A stretch of 43,215 nucleotides of DNA from a virus: the UHGV virus genome UHGV-0324072. One strand, written 5' to 3'. A program made the position numbers and the translations under genes. Positions 1,269 through 43,215 of the stretch are shown in pieces. The notes under the pieces are model-generated. The model did no database searches, was not told the origin of the DNA, and saw only the letters and a list, made by a program, of their open reading frames with translations. How positions within the stretch are numbered: position 1 is the stretch's first letter; each line of letters starts with the position of its first letter.

Positions 1269-1769
1269 TTATTCTTCTTCGAAATACTTGTTCTTAATCG
1301 CCGTCAGGCGTTTCAGGTATTCAGCCAGGTCTTCGTCTTTAATCGCGGCAATCTTCATTTTCTTACCGGTGAACTCCTCCAGCAGTTCATCGGAATCGTC
1401 GCACGCAGCATCGCTAGGACCCTCGTTAATTGCATCGTCGATAGTCTGAATCTGGTCACGAAGAGACTGGTAATCGACCTCTTCTTTCTCTTCTTCTGGT
1501 TCTGGAGTCGGCTCCTCTACTTTAGCTTTACGCGGCTTGCGTTTCGGCTTCTCTTCTTCTGCTGGTTTAGCGTCAACGATGTCTTCACCTTCAACAGGGA
1601 TTTCTTTTGTTGCTTCTTTTTCGCACTCAGCTACCGCTTCTTTGGTATACACTACCGTCTCTACTTCTAACGGCGCTGCAACTTGTGCTGACTGTTTCGC
1701 ACTGTTCGCAGCAATCAGTTCATGTGCAACTACGAAACGTTCCAGTAATTTTAAGAATTGTTCTAACAT
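1269..1769 (-). CDS. acidic hypothetical protein (166 aa), first gene behind promoter at 1801..1829
   Basis: ORF track; ATG at 1769 with strong RBS (rc GAGAGGAGAGAAACAA); Glu/Asp-rich. Confidence 0.55.
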   Translation of the reverse strand: MLEQFLKLLERFVVAHELIAANSAKQSAQVAAPLEVETVVYTKEAVAECEKEATKEIPVEGEDIVDAKPAEEEKPKRKPRKAKVEEPTPEPEEEKEEVDYQSLRDQIQTIDDAINEGPSDAACDDSDELLEEFTGKKMKIAAIKDEDLAEYLKRLTAIKNKYFEEE

Positions 1770-1800: not shown

Positions 1801-1829
1801 ACTATAATAGCGAACTATTCACATGTCAA
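1801..1829 (-). promoter_or_regulatory. sigma70-like promoter (minus strand): -35 TTGACA, 17-bp spacer with ATAGTTCGCTAT palindrome, -10 TATAGT
   Basis: rc of 1801..1829 reads TTGACA-N17-TATAGT; same architecture at 38774..38802 and 42333..42361. Confidence 0.55.
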
Positions 1830-1893
1830 TGGGCTTTTCTAAAATAATTAATATGGTACTATTCACATATCAACTGACTAAGGAGTAATTGAC

Positions 1894-2109
1894 ATGCAAC
1901 CATCTGAACTAGGCATCCGTGTAGAACAACGCCGCAAAGAACTCGGCATCTCCCAGCGCCGTTTGGCGGCCCTGACCGGCGTTTCCCAGGGCGCGATTAA
2001 CCAACTGGCACTTGGAGTAACTCAGGACGTCCGCCCGGCAACGCTGTTCAAACTGGCGGAAGTTCTGGAAGTAGACGCCAAGTGGCTGGCGTTAGGTGAA
2101 GGGGCTTAA
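1894..2109 (+). CDS. XRE/Cro-type helix-turn-helix transcriptional regulator (71 aa)
   Basis: ORF track; ELGISQRRLAALTGVSQGAINQL HTH-like segment; RBS AAGGAG 9 nt upstream. Confidence 0.6.
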   Translation: MQPSELGIRVEQRRKELGISQRRLAALTGVSQGAINQLALGVTQDVRPATLFKLAEVLEVDAKWLALGEGA

Positions 2110-2124
2110 AGCCCCTTTCTTTTT
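2101..2124 (+). terminator. rho-independent terminator after XRE gene
   Basis: GGGGCT-taa-AGCCCC hairpin followed by TTTCTTTTT. Confidence 0.55.
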
Positions 2125-4558: not shown

Positions 4559-4846
4559 CCGTTTAGCCAACCCTTCCAGCAAATTTTTATACTCTTCAAA
4601 ATATTCCTCGACCAAATCATCGCCGAAATAGAAGTCGATATACTCGAGATTATCTCTTACGTTAAGCGATGCCGACATGGTGCTTAGTTGGCGTAAGCTA
4701 ATTAGCTTCATTTCTGTTTCTACGCAGAAAGGCCGGTAGGTATCAAGATGGCAAGAGATATTGAAGCATAAAGCGAACTCTCCGGCCACGGAGTGAACCA
4801 TATACACTTCGTTTTCTGCTTTATTGTGGAAAATTACGCCTTTCAT
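4556..4846 (-). CDS. hypothetical protein (96 aa), coupled to AlpA-like regulator gene
   Basis: ORF track; ATG 4846 overlaps stop of upstream gene (ATGA). Confidence 0.5.
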   Translation of the reverse strand: MKGVIFHNKAENEVYMVHSVAGEFALCFNISCHLDTYRPFCVETEMKLISLRQLSTMSASLNVRDNLEYIDFYFGDDLVEEYFEEYKNLLEGLAKR

Positions 4847-5025
4847 TTCACGTTCTCCTTAATCCATGCTTCGACTTTATTACGGTCAAATGTTCCCGGT
4901 AAACGGCGGCCCATAACCTTAATACAGCAGTCAGGGAATTTGCCGCTGCGCAACCAGTTATTAATGGTCTGACGTGTCACCCCGATACGCTCGGCTACCT
5001 CATTCTGTGTCATGTAATGTTGCAT
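4843..5025 (-). CDS. AlpA/excisionase-family HTH DNA-binding protein (60 aa)
   Basis: ATG at 5025 (RBS AGGGGA); MTQNEVAERIGVTRQTINNWLRSGKFP typical AlpA-type HTH; track start is an upstream alternative codon. Confidence 0.55.
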   Translation of the reverse strand: MQHYMTQNEVAERIGVTRQTINNWLRSGKFPDCCIKVMGRRLPGTFDRNKVEAWIKENVK

Positions 5026-5056: not shown

Positions 5057-5085
5057 AGTATAGGATAGCGGGAATGTAAAAGCAA
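5057..5085 (-). promoter_or_regulatory. candidate sigma70 promoter for AlpA-like operon (TTGCTT-N17-TATACT, minus strand)
   Basis: rc of 5057..5085. Confidence 0.4.
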
Positions 5086-5122
5086 CCAATCCCTGCAATA
5101 TTTAATCTTTACAAAAAAGTTA

Positions 5123-5152
5123 TTGAAAGTTCTTGACACATGTTTGTATAAT
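5123..5152 (+). promoter_or_regulatory. candidate sigma70 promoter (TTGAAA-N18-TATAAT) facing a 350-bp ORF-free region
   Basis: TTGAAA 5123..5128, TATAAT 5147..5152. Confidence 0.45.
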
Positions 5153-5159
5153 GGTTTTG

Positions 5160-5380
5160 GGACTTGTATATATTACGGAGTTGACGAACCCTCCCCGAGG
5201 GATTCGTCAACCCCTCCCAGACAGCTGAGATGCTTGCCTTGTGGTTTAAGGATAAGTGTATCTAAATCTCATTTAAAGAAGTAACCCGCTGAAATATCTA
5301 CTGTTTCTTAATGTGCCGTAGATTCGCAACCGTAAAAATGTAACGATTATTGGGCAGGCCCTAAGCCTGCCCTTTAGTTA
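5160..5380 (+). ncRNA. candidate small non-coding RNA between promoter 5123..5152 and terminator 5353..5380
   Basis: no ORF over 11 codons on plus strand; 13-bp stem-loop 5181..5210 near the 5' end; GGGCAGGC-ctaa-GCCTGCCC plus TTTAGTT terminator at 3' end. Confidence 0.25.
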
Positions 5381-5444: not shown

Positions 5445-5473
5445 TTGCACACCACAACATAATAGGATACTAT
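5445..5473 (+). promoter_or_regulatory. early promoter, class TTGCAC-N17-TACTATTCA
   Basis: TTGCAC 5445..5450, TACTAT 5468..5473. Confidence 0.5.
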
Positions 5474-5507
5474 TCACTTATCGAAACGAGACAGAGGAGT
5501 GAGGGTT

Positions 5508-6633: not shown

Positions 6634-6662
6634 TTGCACGCTGGGATAGAATAGGCTACTAT
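6634..6662 (+). promoter_or_regulatory. early promoter, class TTGCAC-N17-TACTATTCA
   Basis: TTGCAC 6634..6639, TACTAT 6657..6662. Confidence 0.5.
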
Positions 6663-6691
6663 TCATTTACACAAACGAGAGGAGAGATAAT

Positions 6692-6961
6692 ATGGTACAG
6701 AGATATGAGGTAAAAGCGTGGGGCCTGCCAGAGCCTGAGATGGCTGAGTACGCATACGGCGATTATGTAGAGTACGACAGCTATAAGGAACTGGACGACT
6801 ATTACCAGGAACGTCTAGCCGACGCCGACAAGGAAATAGAAGGGCTTGTGTCGAGACTGGCAGAAGTAAACGCCGAGCTACAGAAATACAAAGACCAGTA
6901 CCCTGATTACGTCGAGTGCGCGAACTGCGGGTCGGTTACACATGTGGAGGGGGTGGAGTGA
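6692..6961 (+). CDS. hypothetical protein (89 aa)
   Basis: ORF track; RBS GAGGAGAG. Confidence 0.5.
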   Translation: MVQRYEVKAWGLPEPEMAEYAYGDYVEYDSYKELDDYYQERLADADKEIEGLVSRLAEVNAELQKYKDQYPDYVECANCGSVTHVEGVE

Positions 6962-9018: not shown

Positions 9019-9047
9019 TTGACTATTACCTACGACCCTATTATATT
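9019..9047 (+). promoter_or_regulatory. sigma70-like promoter TTGACT-N17-TATATT
   Basis: TTGACT 9019..9024, TATATT 9042..9047. Confidence 0.45.
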
Positions 9048-16821: not shown

Positions 16822-17025
16822 TCAACGGAATTTTGTGTTTAAATCCTGCTCATGGACAACCCTCAGAACAGTGTCATAATCCCCGTATCTTCCAGGTTCA
16901 AATATATCTAATGCCTTGTAAGCAGACATTGCGTCAGGGAAAACCTGCAGAACCTTTTTAACCCGGCACAAGTCACCGTCGAACTCTTCATCGAACTCTT
17001 GAACTACTTCGCAAATTGCATACAT
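16822..17025 (-). CDS. hypothetical protein (67 aa), reverse-oriented insertion with own promoter
   Basis: ATG 17025, RBS AGGAGG; promoter 17053..17081. Confidence 0.5.
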   Translation of the reverse strand: MYAICEVVQEFDEEFDGDLCRVKKVLQVFPDAMSAYKALDIFEPGRYGDYDTVLRVVHEQDLNTKFR

Positions 17026-17052
17026 TTTTCACCTCCTGTTTAAGTTAACTGA

Positions 17053-17081
17053 ATAGTACCCTATTATATTGGGGTGTGCAA
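17053..17081 (-). promoter_or_regulatory. promoter TTGCAC-N17-TACTATTCA (minus strand)
   Basis: rc of 17053..17081; 31-bp core almost identical to 26174..26204. Confidence 0.5.
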
Positions 17082-17133
17082 ACTATTTATTTACGTATTC
17101 CAGTTATTCCTCCGAATTGTAAATGTTGGAATA

Positions 17134-17149
17134 AACTATTCGAATAGTT
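17134..17149. promoter_or_regulatory. perfect 16-bp palindrome AACTATTCGAATAGTT (candidate operator)
   Basis: self-complementary; overlaps TTGACT (17148..17153) of a candidate plus-strand promoter. Confidence 0.45.
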
Positions 17150-17182
17150 GACTTTTCACTAAAAATATGATAAGCTCCACCT

Positions 17183-17383
17183 GAGCTTGTGAAGTATGAA
17201 CAAGCGACCGCGGCGCGGGCAGGTAACGGAGCGGGACGTAAGTCCTGAGTGTAGTTACGCTGACGCGTTCGGAAGGGCCATACTCTATTGCTTGTGTAAA
17301 AAGTAACTGGTTTACTGAGATTACGCCGTTTCTATGTTTAAATGATAAGGACTAGCGCCCCGCTTTATGGCGGGGCTTTACTT
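17183..17383 (+). ncRNA. candidate small RNA or leader transcript, ending at terminator 17357..17383
   Basis: about 200 bp with no ORF over 37 codons, between candidate promoter (TTGACT 17148 / TAAGCT 17171) and GCCCCGC-tttatg-GCGGGGC plus TTTACTT. Confidence 0.2.
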
Positions 17384-17400
17384 ATCGAGAAAGGGGAAAC

Positions 17401-17787
17401 ATGAATCTTAAAGCAACTGTCGTAGCAGGAGCATGTTTCATCATCCTGGTTTACACACACGGCATCTACCAGTATCGCAGCGGATGGAACGAAGGCCGGG
17501 CTAATCTCGTTTCGCAGCAACAGCAGAAAGCACAGGCTGAGTTAGCGAAGAAAACACAACGGCAGCAGCAGGATGAATCGAAGGCCGCCGCCGCTGACAA
17601 CGAAGGCAAGACGAAATCAGAGGTGATTACCCGTGAAGTCGTTAAGTACATTAAAACGCCTGGTCGCAGCGTGTGCACTTTTGACCCTGAGCGCGTGCAG
17701 CTCAAGTCCCGCGCCGTCGCCAACGCCAATTCCATCCCCGGATACGACGATGATGCAGCCGCCGTGCAAACTGGCGCAGCCAAGTAG
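17401..17787 (+). CDS. i-spanin (Rz-like)
   Basis: N-terminal transmembrane segment TVVAGACFIILVYTHGIY then Gln/Ala-rich coiled-coil region; contains the embedded o-spanin ORF. Confidence 0.55.
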   Translation: MNLKATVVAGACFIILVYTHGIYQYRSGWNEGRANLVSQQQQKAQAELAKKTQRQQQDESKAAAADNEGKTKSEVITREVVKYIKTPGRSVCTFDPERVQLKSRAVANANSIPGYDDDAAAVQTGAAK

Positions 17788-24398: not shown

Positions 24399-24629
24399 TT
24401 ACTCATCAATGTTACTCCTGTACTCCCGTAACTTTTCCAGACTTTCAATTGCTTCCGCTAAGTCGGTTCCGGTGTCCTTGTGTCCACGTAAACCCATGCA
24501 CAATAGCTTCTTCAATGCGTGCTGTAACGCCGGGTCGCGGATGTCGAAAGCGCGGAGCACATCATAAACGTCTACTGTCATAGTGCTGCCGTGAGTATTT
24601 GTCATTGTGCGGTTGTATTTTGAAGTCAT
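24399..24629 (-). CDS. small protein (76 aa), possibly DUF3310-like; third gene of reverse cassette
   Basis: ATG 24629 overlaps stop of upstream gene (ATGA); VYDVLRAF...QHALKKLL motif recalled from DUF3310. Confidence 0.4.
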   Translation of the reverse strand: MTSKYNRTMTNTHGSTMTVDVYDVLRAFDIRDPALQHALKKLLCMGLRGHKDTGTDLAEAIESLEKLREYRSNIDE

Positions 24630-25756
24630 CCCAGCATCTCCGGTGAAATAGTTAAACGTGCGACCTCGCCATATTCGGCGCTATAAGTAATTACGTTTGC
24701 GCTACGCCCAGACATCCATCCGCCGCGCGAGGCGTAGGCGTCTTTCGCCGCTAAGGTGCGGTGTTGCTCAACAATCATGTTACGGCTTTCTACAATCTTC
24801 TGGTGGTGCAGGTGGCCTACGTGGGCGTAGCTGTAAACACTCTCGCCGAACGCTTTACGGAACTTGGCAATCATAACCGGTTCGATAGCGTAGAATCGTG
24901 CTTTATGCCCGTGATGGAAGAACAGCGTCGTTTTGCCGTGTTGCACCATCTTGTAAACATCCGGCGACGTATCAACAATCACTCGGCTGTCGTTTGAGTA
25001 TAAAACCGTGAACATTTCGGCAAGCCATACGGAGCCAACAGGGTCGTGGTTACCTTGAACGATTAAAAGTTTTACTGTGTGATGCTTAACCAGCGCCATA
25101 TCAACAACACGGCGGACCATACGAATCATGTAACGTACCAGTTTCTGATAGCGAGTATCCGCATCTAATACATGGCGCGACTCGGGGGTAACGGCATCAA
25201 GACTATCGAAGTGTGCGAAGTCCCCAAGCAGGTTAATAACTCCTGTTCCTGCATCCGGTGCTTTCTGAAACGCCGCGTCGAACCACCGAGAGAACAGGTC
25301 TTCTGCAATCTTCATGTCCCAGTCGTCGCCGCTCTCATCGGCCCATGCCAGCATACCGAGATGGAAATCAGATACAGTGTAAAGATTGAGTAGCTTGTCG
25401 TCACGTTTGGCGCGCGCCGCTTTAACAGGCGCAACGGGCGTAATCTCTGACTTCATGCCCTCTATTACGGCTTTCATCAATTCAACCTGACGTTCGGCGT
25501 CGGTATCAGTCTTAACCCATTGCAACTTAGTGTTGCCGAACTCGTCCACAAGTGACGACGTTCCTTTAATCTTGTAGCCGTCTGGCACAAGGTGGCTAAC
25601 GTCGCGCCCGTGGCCCACGCCTTTCTTAGCCAGCTTCGCTTTACGGATACGAATTACGCGGTCTGAGATGCCGTATTTACGGGCGATATCTACATTCTTC
25701 ATACCGGCGTTCAATTCTTCCTGCAACTGTTCGTCGGTTATTTTCTTCCGGGCCAT
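24626..25756 (-). CDS. N-terminal HTH fused to calcineurin-like (Mre11/SbcD-type) metallophosphoesterase
   Basis: phosphoesterase motifs in order: SDFHLG, LGDFAHFD, QGNHD, FFHHGHK, GHLHH; N-terminal KNVDIARKYGISDRVIRIR HTH-like segment; RBS GAGGA. Confidence 0.6.
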   Translation of the reverse strand: MARKKITDEQLQEELNAGMKNVDIARKYGISDRVIRIRKAKLAKKGVGHGRDVSHLVPDGYKIKGTSSLVDEFGNTKLQWVKTDTDAERQVELMKAVIEGMKSEITPVAPVKAARAKRDDKLLNLYTVSDFHLGMLAWADESGDDWDMKIAEDLFSRWFDAAFQKAPDAGTGVINLLGDFAHFDSLDAVTPESRHVLDADTRYQKLVRYMIRMVRRVVDMALVKHHTVKLLIVQGNHDPVGSVWLAEMFTVLYSNDSRVIVDTSPDVYKMVQHGKTTLFFHHGHKARFYAIEPVMIAKFRKAFGESVYSYAHVGHLHHQKIVESRNMIVEQHRTLAAKDAYASRGGWMSGRSANVITYSAEYGEVARLTISPEMLG

Positions 25757-25820: not shown

Positions 25821-26147
25821 CTATTTACTTTCTGCGCCTATCGCCCACCCTGTCATTACCATTTGCAGACGGGTGGCTGTCAGTAGGCTATAGAAAGCAT
25901 CTCCGTTTTTCTCTACCGAACGTATCACTGTGTAGGTTACGGCCTGCGGGGGTAGGTCCGATTTACCAACCTCTACAGCGGCCTCACACTCGCGAACCGT
26001 AGAGTCCTTAAATGCCTTTACGATAGTAGGGTCAGCTTTCTCAAGCACACCAGAAGTCATAAGAACAGATTCAGTAAATACCTGTTCGCACGGGGACCCA
26101 AAAGTAGCAAAAGGCATAAACCCCAGAGCTAATACTAATTTACGCAT
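25821..26147 (-). CDS. secreted/periplasmic protein (108 aa) with N-terminal signal peptide; first gene of reverse cassette
   Basis: MRKLVLALGFMPFATFG signal-like N-terminus, two Cys; RBS GAGGA; promoter at 26176..26204. Confidence 0.5.
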   Translation of the reverse strand: MRKLVLALGFMPFATFGSPCEQVFTESVLMTSGVLEKADPTIVKAFKDSTVRECEAAVEVGKSDLPPQAVTYTVIRSVEKNGDAFYSLLTATRLQMVMTGWAIGAESK

Positions 26148-26175
26148 AATTATTTCCTCAGTAAGTTACAGGTGA

Positions 26176-26204
26176 ATAGTACACTATTATATTGGGGTGT
26201 GCAA
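26176..26204 (-). promoter_or_regulatory. promoter TTGCAC-N17-TACTATTCA (minus strand) driving reverse cassette
   Basis: rc of 26176..26204; near-identical to 17053..17081. Confidence 0.5.
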
Positions 26205-26271
26205 GTAATGTGATAGAATAATTTTGCGCCTAGTGTCGCACACGAAAAGCGGGTGGTTCCCGTCTGGCGCA

Positions 26272-31676: not shown

Positions 31677-34234
31677 TCCTGCACTACACGCGAAACGCTG
31701 ATGGCGCTTTCAACCGTACAAAACACGTCGGGATGCCGATGGAGTTTGTCGTTAACCGTATCCCGGACGGCGTTCCGGTACGCGTCTATCTTGGCGAGAT
31801 TGGTGATGATACTGATGTTACAGACGACTTCGACGCGCTCAAAGACGAGGACGCCGTGTACCACATTATTGAGGGCGCTGGCGGCGGCATTGGCGACGCC
31901 ATCGGGAGTGTATTCAGTTTCATCCTTAAGCCAATCGCCAAATTGTTCGGGCTAAACACAGCGGCTAACGCTAATTATTCCGCTACCAACAATCAGGCTA
32001 CGTCGCCTAACAACAGTCTCACCGACCGCTCAAACAAGCCACGACCTTATGAGCGTTCCTATGATATCTGCGGGACAGTGCAGACCATCCCCAATGACCT
32101 GATGCAGACATATAAGGTGTTTAATGCCGCGGGTGCGCTTATTGAATATGCGTACTATGACGCCGGTCGAGGGTATCTGCATATTGAGGAAGACGGTGTA
32201 ACTGAGGCAGATACCCGAATCAGCGAGATAACTGGCTCGTCGGTGACGGTGTATTCTCCTTACACTTCGCCGAATAACACCAGCACACCACAATTGCATA
32301 TCGGCGACCCTATAGACCAGAAATTGTACGTTACATTTAAAAACGCCGATGTCGATGGCGCTGTTCTTCCCGCCCCTAATGATATCGCTATAGACGTGCA
32401 GGACTACACTGTCCAGCGGCAGGGAACAACCGGCGTTGTAGTAGGCGATGACGCTGGTTTCGATGAGTTTTTGGCGGTCGGGGACCTGGCATACTTCGAT
32501 AACGTATATGCAGATACAACCCCAGGGTCTTTGGGTAATGAGGTTAACCTGGACGGGAGGTACACGGTTCTTTCGGTTAGTGAAACCACCCTTATTGTGG
32601 ACGTCAGTACAAATCAATCAGTATGGAACCAGCTAGGGGCGTCTGTGTGGTTTATAGGTGAAGAGGGTAACCATCTTATAGGCCCGGCGGACACTTACGC
32701 GGCTTCTCTCTCTGAATGGGCGTACATCACCCGCGGTACTGTCGACCGTGTTGTAGCCAATGTCGCCGCCAGCAACGGCATGTATAAATACAACGGCGAC
32801 TATAACCGCGCTTCAGTGACAGTCGAACTGCAATACCAGATGGTTGATGAGTTGAAACGGCCCGTAGGTGATATATTCACCGTACAAGGAACTTTAACAG
32901 GCAGGAACACGGATTACACTGGGATAACTCTTTACGGAAGTTTACCAACTGCTTCCAGATTCCGCGCCCGTATGCGTCGTGTTTCTGACACCGATAAAGA
33001 TTTTGAGGGTACTGTTAGCGACGAGGTTACTTTCACTAACCTGTACGGACAGTCTCTGGACACAACACCGCACTACGGCAACCGCACTACGGTGCACTGT
33101 GCCCGTAAACAAACCCCACGTGCAGCCGAGGTGTCAGAACCGGAACTGCGCATGATTGCTACCGAGATGTGCTACAAATACTTAGGTAACGGCGTATTCG
33201 ATACGGTAATGACACCGAACACTCAGGCCGTGCAGTCGCTAATCAGGCTGGCGCGTGACCCTGTGGTGGGTAATCTGGAACTGACAACGGCAAATATGGA
33301 CAAGTTACTTGCCGTGCAGGAAGAAATTGAGTCGTATTTTGACAGTGAATTAGCCGGGCAGTTCTGCTACACATTCGACGACTACGACACAACCATGCAA
33401 GACATCGTTCAGACCATCGCGGAAGCCGTGTTTTGTACGGCATACCGTAAAGGTGCTGATATTATGCTGCGATTCGACCGTCCTGTTGCGGGGCCTGAGA
33501 TGGTTTTCACCCACCGCAGCAAAACGACCGGTACGGAGAAATGGACGCGCACGTTCAACGATTCGACAACCTACGATAGCCTGTCGTTCTCGTACATTGA
33601 CCCGGATACAAACGTACAGGAGACGATTTATATCCCGGAAGAACTCGGCGCGAACACCGAGGAGTACGAATCGAAGGGTGTACGTAACTATCAGCAAGCG
33701 TACTGGCTGGCGTGGCGTCGCTACCAGCGCAATGCGTTAAGTAAAGTTGTCGTAGAGTTCGAAGCTACCGAAGAAGGCGCTCTAGCTACTCCCGGCGGCG
33801 TAATCAGCGTGGTTAAAGGCTCCCGCATCGCGCCGCAGGATGGTTATGTTGTCGCCGTTAATGGGCTTACGCTTACGCTGTCGCAGCCGGTTACGTTTAC
33901 TCCTGGTGATGACCATTCCATCATTCTTAAGAAGCGCGACGGCTCTGTGCAGAGTATTTCTGTTATCAAAGGAAGCCACGACCGCGAAGTGATTATGCTC
34001 TCCGCGCCGGAGGAGGCAATCTACACGGGGAATAGTGCGCTAAAAACTGAGTTTTCATTCGGCAACGAAGCAAGGCATAATGCTCAGAAGATAGTTGTTT
34101 CTTCAATCGACCCCGGCGACGACCGCACGGTCAAGATTACGGGCTACAACTATGATGACGGATTCTATAAATACGACGGCGTCGCGCCATACGGCAGCGG
34201 TTTCTCCGACGGATTCAGCAATGGTTTTAATTAA
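31667..34234 (+). CDS. central tail tip / host specificity protein (lambda gpJ-like)
   Basis: 855 aa; position after gpK-like gene; start codon uncertain (TTG 31667, or ATG near 31733). Confidence 0.55.
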   Translation: MAIILHYTRNADGAFNRTKHVGMPMEFVVNRIPDGVPVRVYLGEIGDDTDVTDDFDALKDEDAVYHIIEGAGGGIGDAIGSVFSFILKPIAKLFGLNTAANANYSATNNQATSPNNSLTDRSNKPRPYERSYDICGTVQTIPNDLMQTYKVFNAAGALIEYAYYDAGRGYLHIEEDGVTEADTRISEITGSSVTVYSPYTSPNNTSTPQLHIGDPIDQKLYVTFKNADVDGAVLPAPNDIAIDVQDYTVQRQGTTGVVVGDDAGFDEFLAVGDLAYFDNVYADTTPGSLGNEVNLDGRYTVLSVSETTLIVDVSTNQSVWNQLGASVWFIGEEGNHLIGPADTYAASLSEWAYITRGTVDRVVANVAASNGMYKYNGDYNRASVTVELQYQMVDELKRPVGDIFTVQGTLTGRNTDYTGITLYGSLPTASRFRARMRRVSDTDKDFEGTVSDEVTFTNLYGQSLDTTPHYGNRTTVHCARKQTPRAAEVSEPELRMIATEMCYKYLGNGVFDTVMTPNTQAVQSLIRLARDPVVGNLELTTANMDKLLAVQEEIESYFDSELAGQFCYTFDDYDTTMQDIVQTIAEAVFCTAYRKGADIMLRFDRPVAGPEMVFTHRSKTTGTEKWTRTFNDSTTYDSLSFSYIDPDTNVQETIYIPEELGANTEEYESKGVRNYQQAYWLAWRRYQRNALSKVVVEFEATEEGALATPGGVISVVKGSRIAPQDGYVVAVNGLTLTLSQPVTFTPGDDHSIILKKRDGSVQSISVIKGSHDREVIMLSAPEEAIYTGNSALKTEFSFGNEARHNAQKIVVSSIDPGDDRTVKITGYNYDDGFYKYDGVAPYGSGFSDGFSNGFN

Positions 34235-36344: not shown

Positions 36345-37765
36345 TTCTTACCTCGTCTCTTCATGTAGTTAAGCAACTCTTCCTGTACCGATTTCTTCTC
36401 GTCGGTACGCGCGGCAACAACCTCGTCCAGCGTGTCTTTAGCGACTATGTGATAAAGGAACACCGGGCGCTCGTGCCCAGCTTGTTTCTGGCGAACAGGG
36501 CCGATGCGCTCGACAACCTGCAAATAGTGCTCAAGATTCCAGCCTTGTGAAATAAACGCCAGATGATGGCCGCCGTCCTGTAAATTCAAACCATGCCCGG
36601 CTGACGCAGGGTGTACGCATAAGATTTCTATTTCGCCGCGGTTCCACGCTTCCATCTGCTTATTACCCTTCGCGCCTTTGGAAAACGCCTGCGCCTGTGG
36701 GAATCGCTTAAGGATGCGCTCAAGTTCGTGCTTGAACTGATAGGCGACCAGCAACGGCGCGCCCTGCAACTCCTCCACAATTGACTCCAGCGCATCCAGT
36801 TTCGTATCGTGCACTTTCTCCCAGTCTTTCGTTGCTTCTCCGTCTGGTCCGGATACATACACGGCACCGGATGCAATCTGCAAACACTTCGACGTCTTCG
36901 CCGCCGCGTTAGCCGCTTCGACTTCCCCGCTCTCCAGTTCCGCAAATAACTTCTCCTCCATATCTATGTACGCCTGACGCGCTTTCTTCGGCAGGTCGAT
37001 TTCAACAGGTACGATAACCGGCGCTTCGCATCCGAACCACTCAGCGGCGTCAATCGTGAGACTGATGTCCTTCATCTTCTGGTGGATTTCAGTATCCGCA
37101 CCCGGGCGGGCGTGGTATTCGCGCGCCATAGCAGATTTGCCTTTCTGCACCGAGTTAAACCAGCGGTCGGTGAATGCCGTGTACGAAGAACCGAGGCGCT
37201 CGCCCGCGTCGATAAACCAGTTCTGTCCCCACAAGTCCTTGAGGCCGTTAGGCGATGGTGTACCTGTCAGGTTGATAAAACGCTTAACCTTTCCGAACGC
37301 CACTCTACTAAGCGCCTTCGCCCGCTTGCTGCCGCCTGAACGGCTGCGGAATGACTTCAGTTTCGTGCTTTCATCGGCAACGATAACGGTAAAAGGCCAG
37401 TCGTCTTTGCCGTAGTAGTCAATCAACCACTCTATTACCTCATAGTTCGTGCACACCACGTTAGCGTCCGACTCCAGCGCCGCGATGCGGCGCTTCTCTG
37501 AACCGGTCGCGTCTACGACACGCAGACATGGGAAATTCCACTTAGTTTGTTCCGCCGGCCATGTGCCTGATGCAACGCGCAACGGGGCGAGGATTAACAC
37601 GCGGTCCTCTTCTGTAAGCTGCCCGTTGCGGAACAGTCGGTTTAATGTCCACAGTACGCTGCCAGTCTTCCCGGCGCCCATGCTCGCCCAAATATTACAG
37701 CGATGGTGCCGCAACATGAACGAAGTCATTAGCTTCTGGTATTCGCGCCTTTGAAACTTACTCAT
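36341..37765 (-). CDS. SNF2/DEAD-box superfamily II helicase
   Basis: Walker A-like SMGAGKTG, DEAD-like VIVADESTKL, helicase C-terminal domain segment. Confidence 0.75.
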   Translation of the reverse strand: MSKFQRREYQKLMTSFMLRHHRCNIWASMGAGKTGSVLWTLNRLFRNGQLTEEDRVLILAPLRVASGTWPAEQTKWNFPCLRVVDATGSEKRRIAALESDANVVCTNYEVIEWLIDYYGKDDWPFTVIVADESTKLKSFRSRSGGSKRAKALSRVAFGKVKRFINLTGTPSPNGLKDLWGQNWFIDAGERLGSSYTAFTDRWFNSVQKGKSAMAREYHARPGADTEIHQKMKDISLTIDAAEWFGCEAPVIVPVEIDLPKKARQAYIDMEEKLFAELESGEVEAANAAAKTSKCLQIASGAVYVSGPDGEATKDWEKVHDTKLDALESIVEELQGAPLLVAYQFKHELERILKRFPQAQAFSKGAKGNKQMEAWNRGEIEILCVHPASAGHGLNLQDGGHHLAFISQGWNLEHYLQVVERIGPVRQKQAGHERPVFLYHIVAKDTLDEVVAARTDEKKSVQEELLNYMKRRGKK

Positions 37766-38552
37766 TTACGGCCCCCATGAACGCCTTTATAAATTCAGCG
37801 GCTACTTGCGGGACGATAGCATTGCCGTAACCGCGCAATCGTCCCACTCTGGCGGGTACCCCATTAGCCAGCGGGAATGTGCTGGGTTCAACTGGCCTGA
37901 ATTTTCCATCCCGGCATCCGAGCCAGTCAGCATCTGACCAGAACCCGTTAGGCGGATTGGCTGTGTCAGAGATGCCTCTGTTTGCAGATTGTGGCCCCCG
38001 TTCCTGCCCTGATGGCCTGCTCCCGCCGAGTTGTTCGCACACGGTGTTGGCCAGTTGCTGCGCTCCGAAGAACAATCGATTCCTTTTGTGCGGTGCGCCG
38101 ACGCTACAAGCTGGGAGTACGGCAAACCCGACGGCGTAGTCTTCTCTTTCCAGGTGAGTTTGTAAATCGCACATCCACGATTTTGCAATTGCTGCCGCAA
38201 CCTGCTCCCCAAAGATGACTGGAGGGTGGCACTCGCTGATGAGGTCGAGGAGCACAGGTGCGAGGTGTCTCTGGTCGAACTGTCCGAGTTGCTTTCCTGC
38301 CGTGCTAAACGGTTGGCAAGGCGGACTTCCCGTCCATATAGGCGTATCTTCAGAAACTCCCGCAAGTCTGAGCGCGAGAGGCCAGCCGCCGATACCCGCG
38401 AAAAAATGACACTGGGTGAACCCGTCAAGGTCTTCTGGTCTAACTTCGGTAATGCTTCTTTCATCTACAACTCCAAAAGGTATGTGACCCTGTTTTATTA
38501 ATTCACGCAGCCACGCGGCTGCGCCTTTATCCCATTCGTTGTAATAGTTCAT
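37758..38552 (-). CDS. DNA (cytosine-5)-methyltransferase, compact; conserved motifs split between two frames
   Basis: motifs [34 protein letters not shown] and X GNAIVPQV in this frame; motif IX-like [10 protein letters not shown] lies in overlapping ORF 37802..38464. Confidence 0.55.
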
Positions 38553-38740
38553 TTTGCCACCAGAACTAACTCTTTACGCCCGAACGCCGTAATATTGCCG
38601 GTTACATCTTCGATAACCAGTTTACCGTTCGACTCGACGAACACTGTATCAACGGCAACAGGACGACGGGTCTTAACGTTGAAAATCATGTCGCCTGGTA
38701 CGATGTCACGTGCAGGTTTGCGGTCATATTCGTGTTTCAT
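38549..38740 (-). CDS. hypothetical protein (63 aa)
   Basis: ORF track; ATGA coupling to methyltransferase gene. Confidence 0.45.
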   Translation of the reverse strand: MKHEYDRKPARDIVPGDMIFNVKTRRPVAVDTVFVESNGKLVIEDVTGNITAFGRKELVLVAK

Positions 38741-38770: not shown

Positions 38771-39058
38771 CTAACTATAATAGTTCGCTATTAGGTCGTC
38801 AACCTGTTTAAACGAACCAACGACAAAAACATTTGCACCACGTTTACGCATCCGCTCGTGCTCTCGTATCTGGTGCGGGTCTGGCTTCGTGTTTTCGTCT
38901 TTCTTAACCTCGACGAACCAGACGATGCCGCCTGGGAGAATTACCAGCAGGTCGGGGGCGCCGGAGCGCCCCTCATAAGACAGCTTACGAACGAGGCCAC
39001 CAATGGCCTCGAATCGCTCTTTTGCGTATTTCTGGATGCACCCCTCAGGCGTACTCAT
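38771..39058 (-). CDS. VRR-NUC domain nuclease (PD-(D/E)xK)
   Basis: GAPDLLVILPGGIVWFVEVKK motif. Confidence 0.7.
   Translation of the reverse strand: MSTPEGCIQKYAKERFEAIGGLVRKLSYEGRSGAPDLLVILPGGIVWFVEVKKDENTKPDPHQIREHERMRKRGANVFVVGSFKQVDDLIANYYS
38774..38802 (-). promoter_or_regulatory. sigma70-like promoter TTGACG-N17-TATAGT with palindromic spacer (minus strand), embedded in 3' end of VRR-NUC gene
   Basis: rc of 38774..38802; spacer contains AATAGCGAACTAT. Confidence 0.5.
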
Positions 39059-41652: not shown

Positions 41653-42279
41653 TTAACGGCGGCGACGTTCGCGGCGCGGTGCTTCATCTTCTTCGTCGTC
41701 TTCCAGGTCGTCGACGCTTGCAGCAACTTTAGAGCCTCCAAACGCTTTACCTTCGCCAACGTACTTAATTGCCAGCAGGTTAACGCCGAGTACTTTATAT
41801 TTCTGGCTGAACCAGATTTCAACGCTTACGTTAGCGACGCAGCCACTGTACACCTGTTCACCTTCAATCTGTTCGCCTTCTACATTGAAGTCTGGTTCTA
41901 CCTGAGTTTCGCCTTTTTTAGATGTTACAATCAGAGGTTGTTTCTGCGCTTTCGCTTTGAAGTAGAAACCTTCCGGGAAGTCTTCAAACGGATTGTCGCG
42001 CTCGGCGATGTCCTTAATCGCGCATTTATCCATGTGCTTGCCTTCGCCGTAGTTTGACTTCATCCATTTCTCTGCGGCGGCTGCACCCAACGCTTCTTCA
42101 ACCACAGCGTAAACGGTGTCGTAGAGCGCGTCGATTTGAGCATGGTCAGACGGCAGGATGATAGTTGCGCTGTACTGGCCTTTAGTGATTGAGCCGTCGT
42201 CGTTTTCACGGTCTTTTTCGCGTTCGAATACGTTAACCCATGCAGTGTTTACTTTACGCAGATTCAGTTTAATGCCCAT
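41653..42279 (-). CDS. putative ssDNA-binding protein (DUF2815-like)
   Basis: 208 aa; acidic DDLEDDEEDE tract near C-terminus; first gene behind promoter 42333..42361; family call from memory. Confidence 0.4.
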   Translation of the reverse strand: MGIKLNLRKVNTAWVNVFEREKDRENDDGSITKGQYSATIILPSDHAQIDALYDTVYAVVEEALGAAAAEKWMKSNYGEGKHMDKCAIKDIAERDNPFEDFPEGFYFKAKAQKQPLIVTSKKGETQVEPDFNVEGEQIEGEQVYSGCVANVSVEIWFSQKYKVLGVNLLAIKYVGEGKAFGGSKVAASVDDLEDDEEDEAPRRERRRR

Positions 42280-42332
42280 CTTGATTTCTCGCTTTTAAGT
42301 TTACTCCGGGAGCTGCCCGGCCAGTGATTAGA

Positions 42333-42361
42333 ACTATAATAGCTAACTATTCAGGTGTCAA
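42333..42361 (-). promoter_or_regulatory. sigma70-like promoter TTGACA-N17-TATAGT with palindromic spacer (minus strand)
   Basis: rc of 42333..42361; spacer contains AATAGTTAGCTAT. Confidence 0.5.
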
Positions 42362-42550
42362 ATAAAATTTCGCAATACGGACTATGTTCTCGAAATCATT
42401 CATATCAACGGGTTCGAATTCATCCTCCACATGGTTGTATCGCACCATCGTGCCGTTCAGGAACGTAAACGATTCCGAATGGATATAACCGCCCCAGCGC
42501 CATATCATCACAAAATCTTTATCTGTGGGCATTTCATTTACTTGAATCAT
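42347..42550 (-). CDS. hypothetical protein (67 aa)
   Basis: ATG 42550 (RBS AGGA) overlaps stop of nuclease gene (ATGA); track start is an upstream alternative codon. Confidence 0.4.
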   Translation of the reverse strand: MIQVNEMPTDKDFVMIWRWGGYIHSESFTFLNGTMVRYNHVEDEFEPVDMNDFENIVRIAKFYLTPE

Positions 42551-43215
42551 TCCAAATCCTCCTCTGTTACCTGATTCCACTCAGGACGTTTGTCGTCTGC
42601 CGTTGCGACACATGGTGCGCCTGGCTTACGGGTAATGAAGTCTTTCAGTTCTTCTTCCGGTATGACTTTAACAGCTTCGGTAGGTGACATGAGCACTTCT
42701 TTAGTCAGCTTGTCGCCGTAGAGTTCTGTTACTTTCTCCGCGTCTTTCCATGCACGATTACCCGGGCGGCCTTCAACCAACTTGTAACCAGGAACTTTCT
42801 TACCTGAATGCAACGCGGCCGCCATAGCTTTCTCAACCTTGTCGATGTGCTGGCGCAACAGCGGCAACTTCTCATACTCAGCTACGAGTTGCTCCGGCGT
42901 CAGTTCCAGCACAAAGTCGTCTTCCAGTTCTTCCGCCAGTACAGAATTAACCGTCTTTGTACGCGCAGCGCATTGTTCAGAGAACCGGCACCACTGACAA
43001 CCATCTACCGATGGCTTGAAGTCCGACGCTTTCAGGTTCTTCTTGCCACGGAAATACGCATCAAGCGCTAACAGCGCGCGTTTCTGTGCGAACTTAGCGA
43101 ACAGTTCCAGTCCTTCAACCGAGATGTCCCACTCTGTCGCGCCCCCAGCGTAAGGCTGGAAGATGACCAGACGAACGGTTGTTATGTTATAACGTCTCTT
43201 GAGTCGACGATAAAC
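42547..43215 (-). CDS. DUF2800-family nuclease, C-terminal part; ORF enters from beyond window end and is in frame with 1..612
   Basis: open frame from 43215 to stop at 42547; Cys cluster CQWCRFSEQC (Cas4-like Fe-S motif); ends VTEEDLE. Confidence 0.6.
   Translation of the reverse strand, partial: VYRRLKRRYNITTVRLVIFQPYAGGATEWDISVEGLELFAKFAQKRALLALDAYFRGKKNLKASDFKPSVDGCQWCRFSEQCAARTKTVNSVLAEELEDDFVLELTPEQLVAEYEKLPLLRQHIDKVEKAMAAALHSGKKVPGYKLVEGRPGNRAWKDAEKVTELYGDKLTKEVLMSPTEAVKVIPEEELKDFITRKPGAPCVATADDKRPEWNQVTEEDLE

Follow-up and report, generated by a model that had tools for sequence, protein, structure and literature searches.

The 14-bp palindrome AATAG-N4-CTATT occurs in seven exact copies in the 43,215-nucleotide viral genome analysed here (UHGV-0324072, whose full length we call the window), and all seven copies sit in sigma70-type promoters of two architectures. 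We propose that the element, which lies over the cores of seven promoters for the host polymerase, serves as operator for a dimeric helix-turn-helix repressor encoded by the phage, and that its likeliest binder would be the 71-aa XRE protein encoded at 1894..2109, a relative of 434 Cro. We give this reading as a whole roughly even chances; binding of a protein, repression by it and its identity as XRE are what we infer from the sites, their context, their conservation and the gene content of the phage.

The first 6 kb of the window are 99.7% identical to Escherichia phage NicoleGrasset_Bas72 (PQ850621), a Kagunavirus of the BASEL collection in the subfamily Guernseyvirinae. The window is a Kagunavirus, a virulent E. 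coli phage whose relatives comprise hundreds of E. coli and Salmonella phages. The Bas72 annotation lists no integrase, no CI-type maintenance repressor and no RNA polymerase. To our knowledge, gene regulation in Kagunavirus and Jerseyvirus is essentially unstudied; promoters of the Jersey-like Salmonella phage MB78 reportedly interact with phage or host factors.

The repeated motif is already in print, under another interpretation. Seven copies with the consensus tgAATAGTa-ccTATTat-T were found in phage fBC-Eco01 by PHIRE as a 'phage promoter' and assigned to a phage-encoded RNA polymerase (PMC9825357), and seven PHIRE promoters were likewise described for phage Golestan (PMC7203180). The fBC-Eco01 motif (PMC9825357) is the same as ours, which we read instead as sigma70 promoters with a putative operator. 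The available portions of the two papers contain neither the sigma70 -35/-10 framing and the two architectures nor the operator reading, the half-site switch in phage AH01 and the regulator assignment presented below (PMC9825357, PMC7203180).

Seven promoters in two architectures

A sequence-only reading of the window had pointed to three minus-strand 29-mers, each a promoter with a palindrome in its spacer. All three are present, as TTGACATGTGAATAGTTCGCTATTATAGT (1829..1801), TTGACGACCTAATAGCGAACTATTATAGT (38802..38774) and TTGACACCTGAATAGTTAGCTATTATAGT (42361..42333), and 0.00 matches to the degenerate 29-mer pattern are expected from 100 shuffles. Scored against TTGACA/TATAAT, with spacers of 17 bp at each site, they match the consensus at 11, 10 and 11 of 12 positions, and not at the 11 or 12 claimed for them. 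They are among the best promoter-like sites in the window, other such matches occurring at about chance level. Their description as near-consensus sigma70-type promoters heading leftward replication and recombination operons holds up: in the Bas72 annotation the genes behind them are leftward replication and recombination genes (Gp2.5-like SSB, DNA polymerase, exonuclease, methyltransferase and helicase). In addition, the Jersey record marks the orthologues of sites 2 and 3 as sigma70-like promoters, and the SETP3 record annotates the site 3 orthologue as 'promoter' and the orthologue of P7 (see below) as a minus-strand promoter.

The spacer palindrome is equally real, but it had been drawn too narrowly. 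It extends over 14 bp and has seven exact copies, not three, compared with 0 in 30 shuffles. An unbiased census covering all 5-Nk-5 palindromes (k = 2-8) puts AATAG-N4-CTATT at the top: it has 7 copies, where the shuffles reach 3 at most. The runners-up are G+C-rich and resemble terminator stems. The same element tops the census in every Kagunavirus and Jerseyvirus examined (4-8 copies). Nor is it confined to three replication promoters, for the seven-promoter set also includes rightward small-gene operons and two short leftward units within the structural region.

Each of the seven has recognizable -35 and -10 hexamers at a spacing within the 16-18 bp typical of sigma70 promoters (17 bp in 7/7) and a gene downstream, with a Shine-Dalgarno sequence and an ATG start codon within 20-50 nt. 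The palindrome abuts or contains the -10 hexamer in all seven, so that overlap with core promoter elements, as expected of an operator, is seen in 7/7.

In the class 1 layout, TTGACR-N4-AATAG-N4-CTAT-TATAGT, the putative operator fills the spacer, and its final T doubles as the first base of the -10 hexamer. P1 (1801..1829, minus strand; TTGACA-N17-TATAGT) holds the operator AATAGTTCGCTATT at 1806..1819 in its spacer and has ORF 1269..1769 and further leftward genes downstream. P2 (38774..38802, minus strand; TTGACG-N17-TATAGT; operator 38779..38792) precedes the 63-aa ORF 38549..38740, the methyltransferase and the helicase, and P3 (42333..42361, minus strand; TTGACA-N17-TATAGT; operator 42338..42351) precedes the genes for the Gp2.5-like SSB (41653..42279) and DNA polymerase. 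As the first reading had it, two of these three sites lie in the 3' ends of upstream genes, P2 within ORF 38771..39058 and P3 in ORF 42347..42580.

Two features downstream of these promoters deserve mention in their own right. The transcript from P3 would open with a conserved hairpin, CCGGGCAGCTCCCGG (about 42301..42315, minus strand), which carries no U-tract; its loop varies among relatives and its stem is kept even in the distant Salmonella phage vB_STM-ZS (ZS). Lying ahead of the SSB gene, the hairpin may stabilise the 5' end or have a regulatory role. The 63-aa protein directly after P2 (38549..38740, minus strand) shows 95-97% identity across Kagunavirus and Jerseyvirus, a conservation well above that of its neighbours, and is absent from ZS, a phyletic pattern like that of the HTH_17 protein discussed below. 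It gave no Pfam or PDB match and no DNA-binding signal.

In the class 2 layout, TTGCAC-N10-AATAG-NN-TACTAT-T, the -10 hexamer occupies palindrome positions 8-13, and all four members read TTGCAC-N17-TACTAT. P4 (5445..5474, plus strand) has the operator AATAGGATACTATT (5461..5474) over its -10 and heads a rightward small-gene operon with a start codon at about 5509. P5 (6634..6663, plus strand; operator 6650..6663) is followed by ORF 6692..6961 and further rightward genes. On the minus strand, P6 (17052..17081; operator 17052..17065) faces the 67-aa ORF 16822..17025, and P7 (26175..26204; operator 26175..26188) faces ORF 25821..26147 and the phosphoesterase gene 24626..25756. Plus-strand readings at 17039 and 26165 had suggested a third class, late promoters with poor -35 boxes, but they turned out to be class 2 promoters on the other strand driving short leftward genes; the reading at 26165..26193 is the mirror image of P7. 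We also discarded an activator at -41.5 for the rightward tail-gene promoter (26211..26219), as the position is about -44.5 and is not repeated at the other site.

Promoter-like sites that lack the full palindrome lie at about 5092..5064 (ahead of the HTH_17 and helicase-primase genes), at 5123..5152 (plus strand) and at 9019..9047 (plus strand). The last, TTGACT-17-TATATT with a spacer ending in CCCTAT-TATATT, has the right half-site only, which indicates that the CTAT-T/-10 junction is possible without the left half-site.

Two non-coding stretches were also noted. The first, 5123..5380 (plus strand), lies between the HTH_17 operon and P4; it opens with a promoter, TTGAAA-18-TATAAT (11/12, no palindrome), continues for about 220 nt without a convincing ORF and ends in a strong intrinsic terminator at 5352..5372. 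Its RNA fold has an energy of -70.4 kcal/mol (z = -4.84 against shuffles), and Rfam gave no match anywhere in the window, this stretch included; it is a candidate phage small RNA or leader. The second, 17066..17400 (plus strand), is a long non-coding stretch before the head-gene block. A promoter-like site, TTGACT-17-TAAGCT, is found there at about 17147..17175, and its -35 shares bases with a perfect palindrome of 16 bp, AACTATT-CG-AATAGTT (about 17135..17150), in which the half-sites stand in opposite order. An intrinsic terminator at 17357..17376 closely precedes the first ORF, at 17401. In its arrangement the stretch recalls a late promoter followed by a leader terminator.

Conservation of the half-sites among relatives

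Exact copies of AATAG-N4-CTATT are found at syntenic places in Bas72, Bas71, AV104 and phiEc3 (7 each), LM02P1 (8), SETP3 (5) and Jersey (4). When the class 1 orthologues and paralogues are aligned, the invariant columns are TTGA, AATAG and CTATTAT-A-T, while the central 4 bp vary (TTCG, TTAG, CGAA, CAGA, AACA, TTAA, TACT) and the four bases beside the -35 also drift. Half-sites that stay fixed while the centre and flanks drift rule out simple inheritance of a duplicated spacer. The earlier remark that the core of site 1 is the reverse complement of that of site 2 describes a coincidence of the window genome, as the two read TTCG/TTAG and CAGA elsewhere (Bas71, AV104, LM02P1). Site 1 of AV104 and LM02P1 carries a 1-bp insertion between the -35 and the palindrome, giving an 18-bp spacer, yet the junction of palindrome and -10 is intact, so the palindrome is anchored to the -10. 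LM02P1 also has an eighth exact palindrome, AATAGCTTACTATT (36765..36778), without a counterpart in the window, so that close relatives have gained or lost operators.

Pantoea phage AH01, an unclassified member of the subfamily, provides what we regard as the strongest single result in favour of a binding site. Its P1 orthologue reads TTGCAA-N5-AATAC-CGAC-GTATT-ATAGT, and AATAC-N4-GTATT is present in five exact copies (the P1 orthologue and four more), along with two hybrid sites (AATAC..CTATT) and an imperfect copy adjoining the XRE gene. The G to C change in one half is therefore matched by a C to G change in the other, repeatedly across sites, as expected if a two-fold symmetric dimer were to read the element. 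The half-sites are accordingly two-fold symmetric, conserved and covarying, and this conservation pattern together with the AH01 switch is, as judged from the alignments, the signature of a dimeric DNA-binding protein.

ZS and TS33 have no palindrome family and carry only asymmetric copies near XRE. In the P3 orthologue of ZS the -35, CTAT-TATATT, the 17-bp spacing and the downstream hairpin are all retained, and ATTAT stands in place of AATAG. This promoter is complete without the left half-site, which makes the palindrome look like an addition to a full promoter.

The position of the palindrome bears on what a bound protein would do. The -10 starts at palindrome position 14 in class 1, at position 8 in class 2 and at position 11 in the P7 orthologue of Jersey and SETP3 and in two AH01 promoters. 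Register shifts of 3 and 6 bp would place the protein on different faces of the helix, which steric repression could tolerate but position-dependent activators or loading of the Q/AlpA type could not, and promoters this near to consensus need no activator. The variable register over the -10 thus argues for repression by the putative binder. The first reading's view of the palindrome as a repressor-type control element is in keeping with all of this: invariant half-sites, a free centre, the symmetric AH01 switch and a site that abuts or overlaps the -10.

Candidate binders and competing readings

The sequence-only reading had named two possible binders, an XRE-type and an 'AlpA-like' protein. 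We favour XRE, which is common to all palindrome-bearing lineages; the other is missing from AH01. The XRE gene (1894..2109, plus strand; 71 aa) is a single-gene unit closed by a terminator at 2098..2118. Its product matches Pfam HTH_3 (E=3.9e-13), and its best solved relatives in the PDB are 434 Cro and the DNA-binding domain of the 434 repressor (E ~1e-5). Both of these proteins recognise operators of 14 bp in which the outer bases are conserved and the centre is free. In the window ORF screen, XRE was the only protein with a DNA-binding domain among the small proteins common to Jersey, LM02P1 and AH01, and its gene adjoins P1 in every lineage. Moreover, an imperfect operator copy with one mismatch, AATATGGTACTATT (1850..1863, plus strand), overlaps the likely -10 (TACTAT, 1857..1862) of the XRE gene's own promoter and may serve autoregulation. 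Five lineages have such an imperfect copy over the XRE promoter -10, although its conservation could simply reflect the -10 within it. As the sole shared small protein with a DNA-binding domain, encoded beside P1 and with an imperfect copy at its own promoter, XRE would be the most parsimonious binder.

Two observations, both from sequence comparison, count against XRE. Its recognition helix reads SQGAINQL in Kagunavirus and SQSLITHL in Jerseyvirus, the proteins being 49% identical between the genera, yet both genera use AATAG/CTATT. In addition, ZS and TS33 encode XRE without having dispersed sites, and the ZS helix, TQSAISHL, is close to that of Jersey.

If XRE is the repressor, host RNA polymerase would fire the near-consensus class 1 and class 2 promoters at infection. 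As XRE accumulates, its dimers would fill the operators, which lie at about -25..-12 in class 1 promoters and at about -19..-6 in those of class 2, and polymerase would be blocked. Replication, recombination and small-gene operons would then be turned down together, and the imperfect copy over the -10 of the XRE promoter would give weaker negative autoregulation.

Some further details of the XRE locus were noted. At 1818..1829 the -35 of P1 (minus strand) and the predicted -35 of XRE (TTCACA, plus strand) abut back to back and form a near-palindrome, TTCACATGTCAA; the counterpart in AH01, TS33 and ZS, (C)TTGCAA(G) or TTGCAT, can be read as a -35 box in either direction. Phage Bas71 was considered as a natural XRE deletion and rejected, as the gene is present and identical at 32649..32861. 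It is missing from the GenBank annotation, which lists a 96-nt ORF on the opposite strand instead.

The other named candidate is the HTH_17 protein (4843..5025, minus strand; 60 aa), the first gene product of the helicase-primase operon. The label 'AlpA-like' did not survive closer comparison: the protein is a winged helix of the BldC/Xis type, and neither its sequence nor its fold reveals a relation to AlpA. Pseudomonas aeruginosa AlpA was found neither by a PDB sequence search at E<=10 nor among the 50 Foldseek matches listed, and the best matches listed for the predicted fold (pLDDT 86) were BldC (TM-score ~0.67), RacA, MerR N-terminal domains and phage Xis. Conceivably, HTH_17 is made early from its palindrome-free likely promoter (about 5092..5064) and then represses or modulates the seven promoters. 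Its distribution speaks for this: it is a clade-specific core gene found in 443 phage records, all of the Kagunavirus or Jerseyvirus type, forms only 16 clusters at a threshold of at least 68% identity among 5.8 billion proteins, and occupies the same clade as AATAG-N4-CTATT, being absent from the palindrome-free ZS and TS33. Identity between Kagunavirus and Jerseyvirus is also higher for HTH_17 (80%) than for XRE (49%), and in a coarse time-course RNA-seq of the Kagunavirus K1B4 an HTH gene, probably HTH_17 to judge from the gene numbering, is among only 4 'early' genes.

AH01, however, has the full operator family in orthologous promoters and encodes neither HTH_17 nor any other credible HTH protein besides XRE, so that HTH_17 is, on this genome comparison, dispensable for the operator family there. 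The LM02P1 variant has the helix SPMTLNRW in place of TRQTINNW, yet LM02P1 has eight exact palindromes. The fold also counts against it. Proteins such as BldC, Xis and the MerR N-terminal domains either recognise direct repeats or depend on an additional domain for dimerisation; HTH_17 shares their predicted minimal winged-helix fold and lacks such a domain, and the site here is palindromic, unlike the direct repeats bound by BldC. We therefore consider HTH_17 an unlikely binder.

A conserved transcription factor of the host (Enterobacterales), or else some phage protein that has no known DNA-binding domain and has escaped recognition, would explain why neither phage HTH protein covaries cleanly with the motif, and why E. 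coli and Salmonella phages share one form of the motif and a Pantoea phage has a slightly altered one. We know of no host factor with a 5-4-5 site. The OxyR and MntR motifs contain ATAG..CTAT with a different spacing, and both proteins were set aside for this reason. ZS infects Salmonella like Jersey and yet has no sites, and a host factor would turn the persistent linkage of the sites to the XRE gene into a coincidence; as with HTH_17, we think it improbable that the binder is to be found here.

It is very unlikely, in our judgement, that the palindrome has no factor at all, whether as an inherited duplicated spacer, as a sequence favouring sigma70 function or, in the published variant, as the promoter of a phage RNA polymerase. 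The right half (CTAT-T) does run into the -10 and persists even in ZS and TS33, the promoters within each class are clearly paralogous, and PHIRE flagged the motif as a 'phage promoter' (PMC9825357). Against this, the same 14-mer occurs in two unrelated promoter architectures and in different registers, its half-sites are invariant while the flanks drift, and AH01 changes both halves symmetrically. An RNA polymerase gene is not found among the ORFs of at least 600 aa, which match by position the Bas72 helicase-primase, DNA polymerase, tape measure, tail protein and tailspike. The phage-polymerase assignment made for fBC-Eco01, as worded in the available part of that paper, thus fails for want of an encoded polymerase (PMC9825357).

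Finally, an antiterminator loading site, where a winged helix would bind between -35 and -10, move to RNA polymerase and allow terminator read-through, resembles the class 1 sites in that the P. aeruginosa AlpA and lambda Q elements also lie in the spacer (PMC7969949), that annotators call the nearby winged helix AlpA- or PrtN-like and that intrinsic terminators lie inside the long rightward operons (for example 6519, 17357 and 19748), but it is barely credible here: HTH_17 has no sequence or structural likeness to AlpA and no N-terminal extension, its HTH beginning at residue 4-7, no terminator stands between promoter and first gene at any of the seven promoters (20-50 nt leaders), no consistent -10-like pause element was seen in their initially transcribed regions, the element is palindromic and not asymmetric, and its register against the -10 varies by 3 and 6 bp, which antiterminator loading should not tolerate.

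Relation to known systems and meaning

The proposed repressor-operator arrangement is most like the Cro/CI systems of phage 434 (and of P22 and lambda). In both, a small HTH_3/XRE protein, here nearest to 434 Cro and the 434 repressor, is paired (here putatively) with a 14-bp palindromic operator that has conserved outer half-sites and a free centre and lies over core promoter elements, and a weaker copy is found at the regulator's own divergently placed promoter. There are differences as well. The phage here is virulent, with no annotated integrase or CI-type maintenance repressor; its operators are single and dispersed over seven promoters instead of being clustered in one or two control regions; and the half-site is unrelated to ACAA/TTGT, with binding by XRE being a prediction. 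MerR-type regulators also bind within promoter spacers. Such an activator, which works on a 19-20 bp spacer, fails here, where spacers have the optimal 17 bp (18 bp at site 1 of AV104 and LM02P1) and HTH_17 has no coiled-coil dimerisation helix.

Taken together, the arrangement appears to be a standard phage repressor-operator regulon of a familiar kind in a virulent phage, with XRE as the putative binder. It gives a map of seven putatively co-regulated host-type promoters with a defined 14-bp candidate operator and narrows the candidate regulators to two. It also corrects the published claim of phage-RNA-polymerase promoters, as stated in the available part of that report (PMC9825357). Kagunaviruses and Jerseyviruses, often isolated with a view to therapy or biocontrol of E. 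coli and Salmonella, have hundreds of records and are represented in the BASEL collection, and the promoters described here are compact, strong and probably repressible ones for phage engineering.

A bolder version, which we hold to be distinctly unlikely, is that a virulent phage runs most of its non-structural transcription as one regulon, with a small Cro-like dimer acting on a single-copy operator in seven dispersed consensus promoters, and that between genera the half-site was altered symmetrically from AATAG to AATAC while the recognition helix drifted without an obvious code, or else that a clade-specific BldC-like HTH_17 cooperates as a new promoter-embedded factor. If this were true, the subfamily would be a natural series for the co-evolution of operator and repressor specificity.
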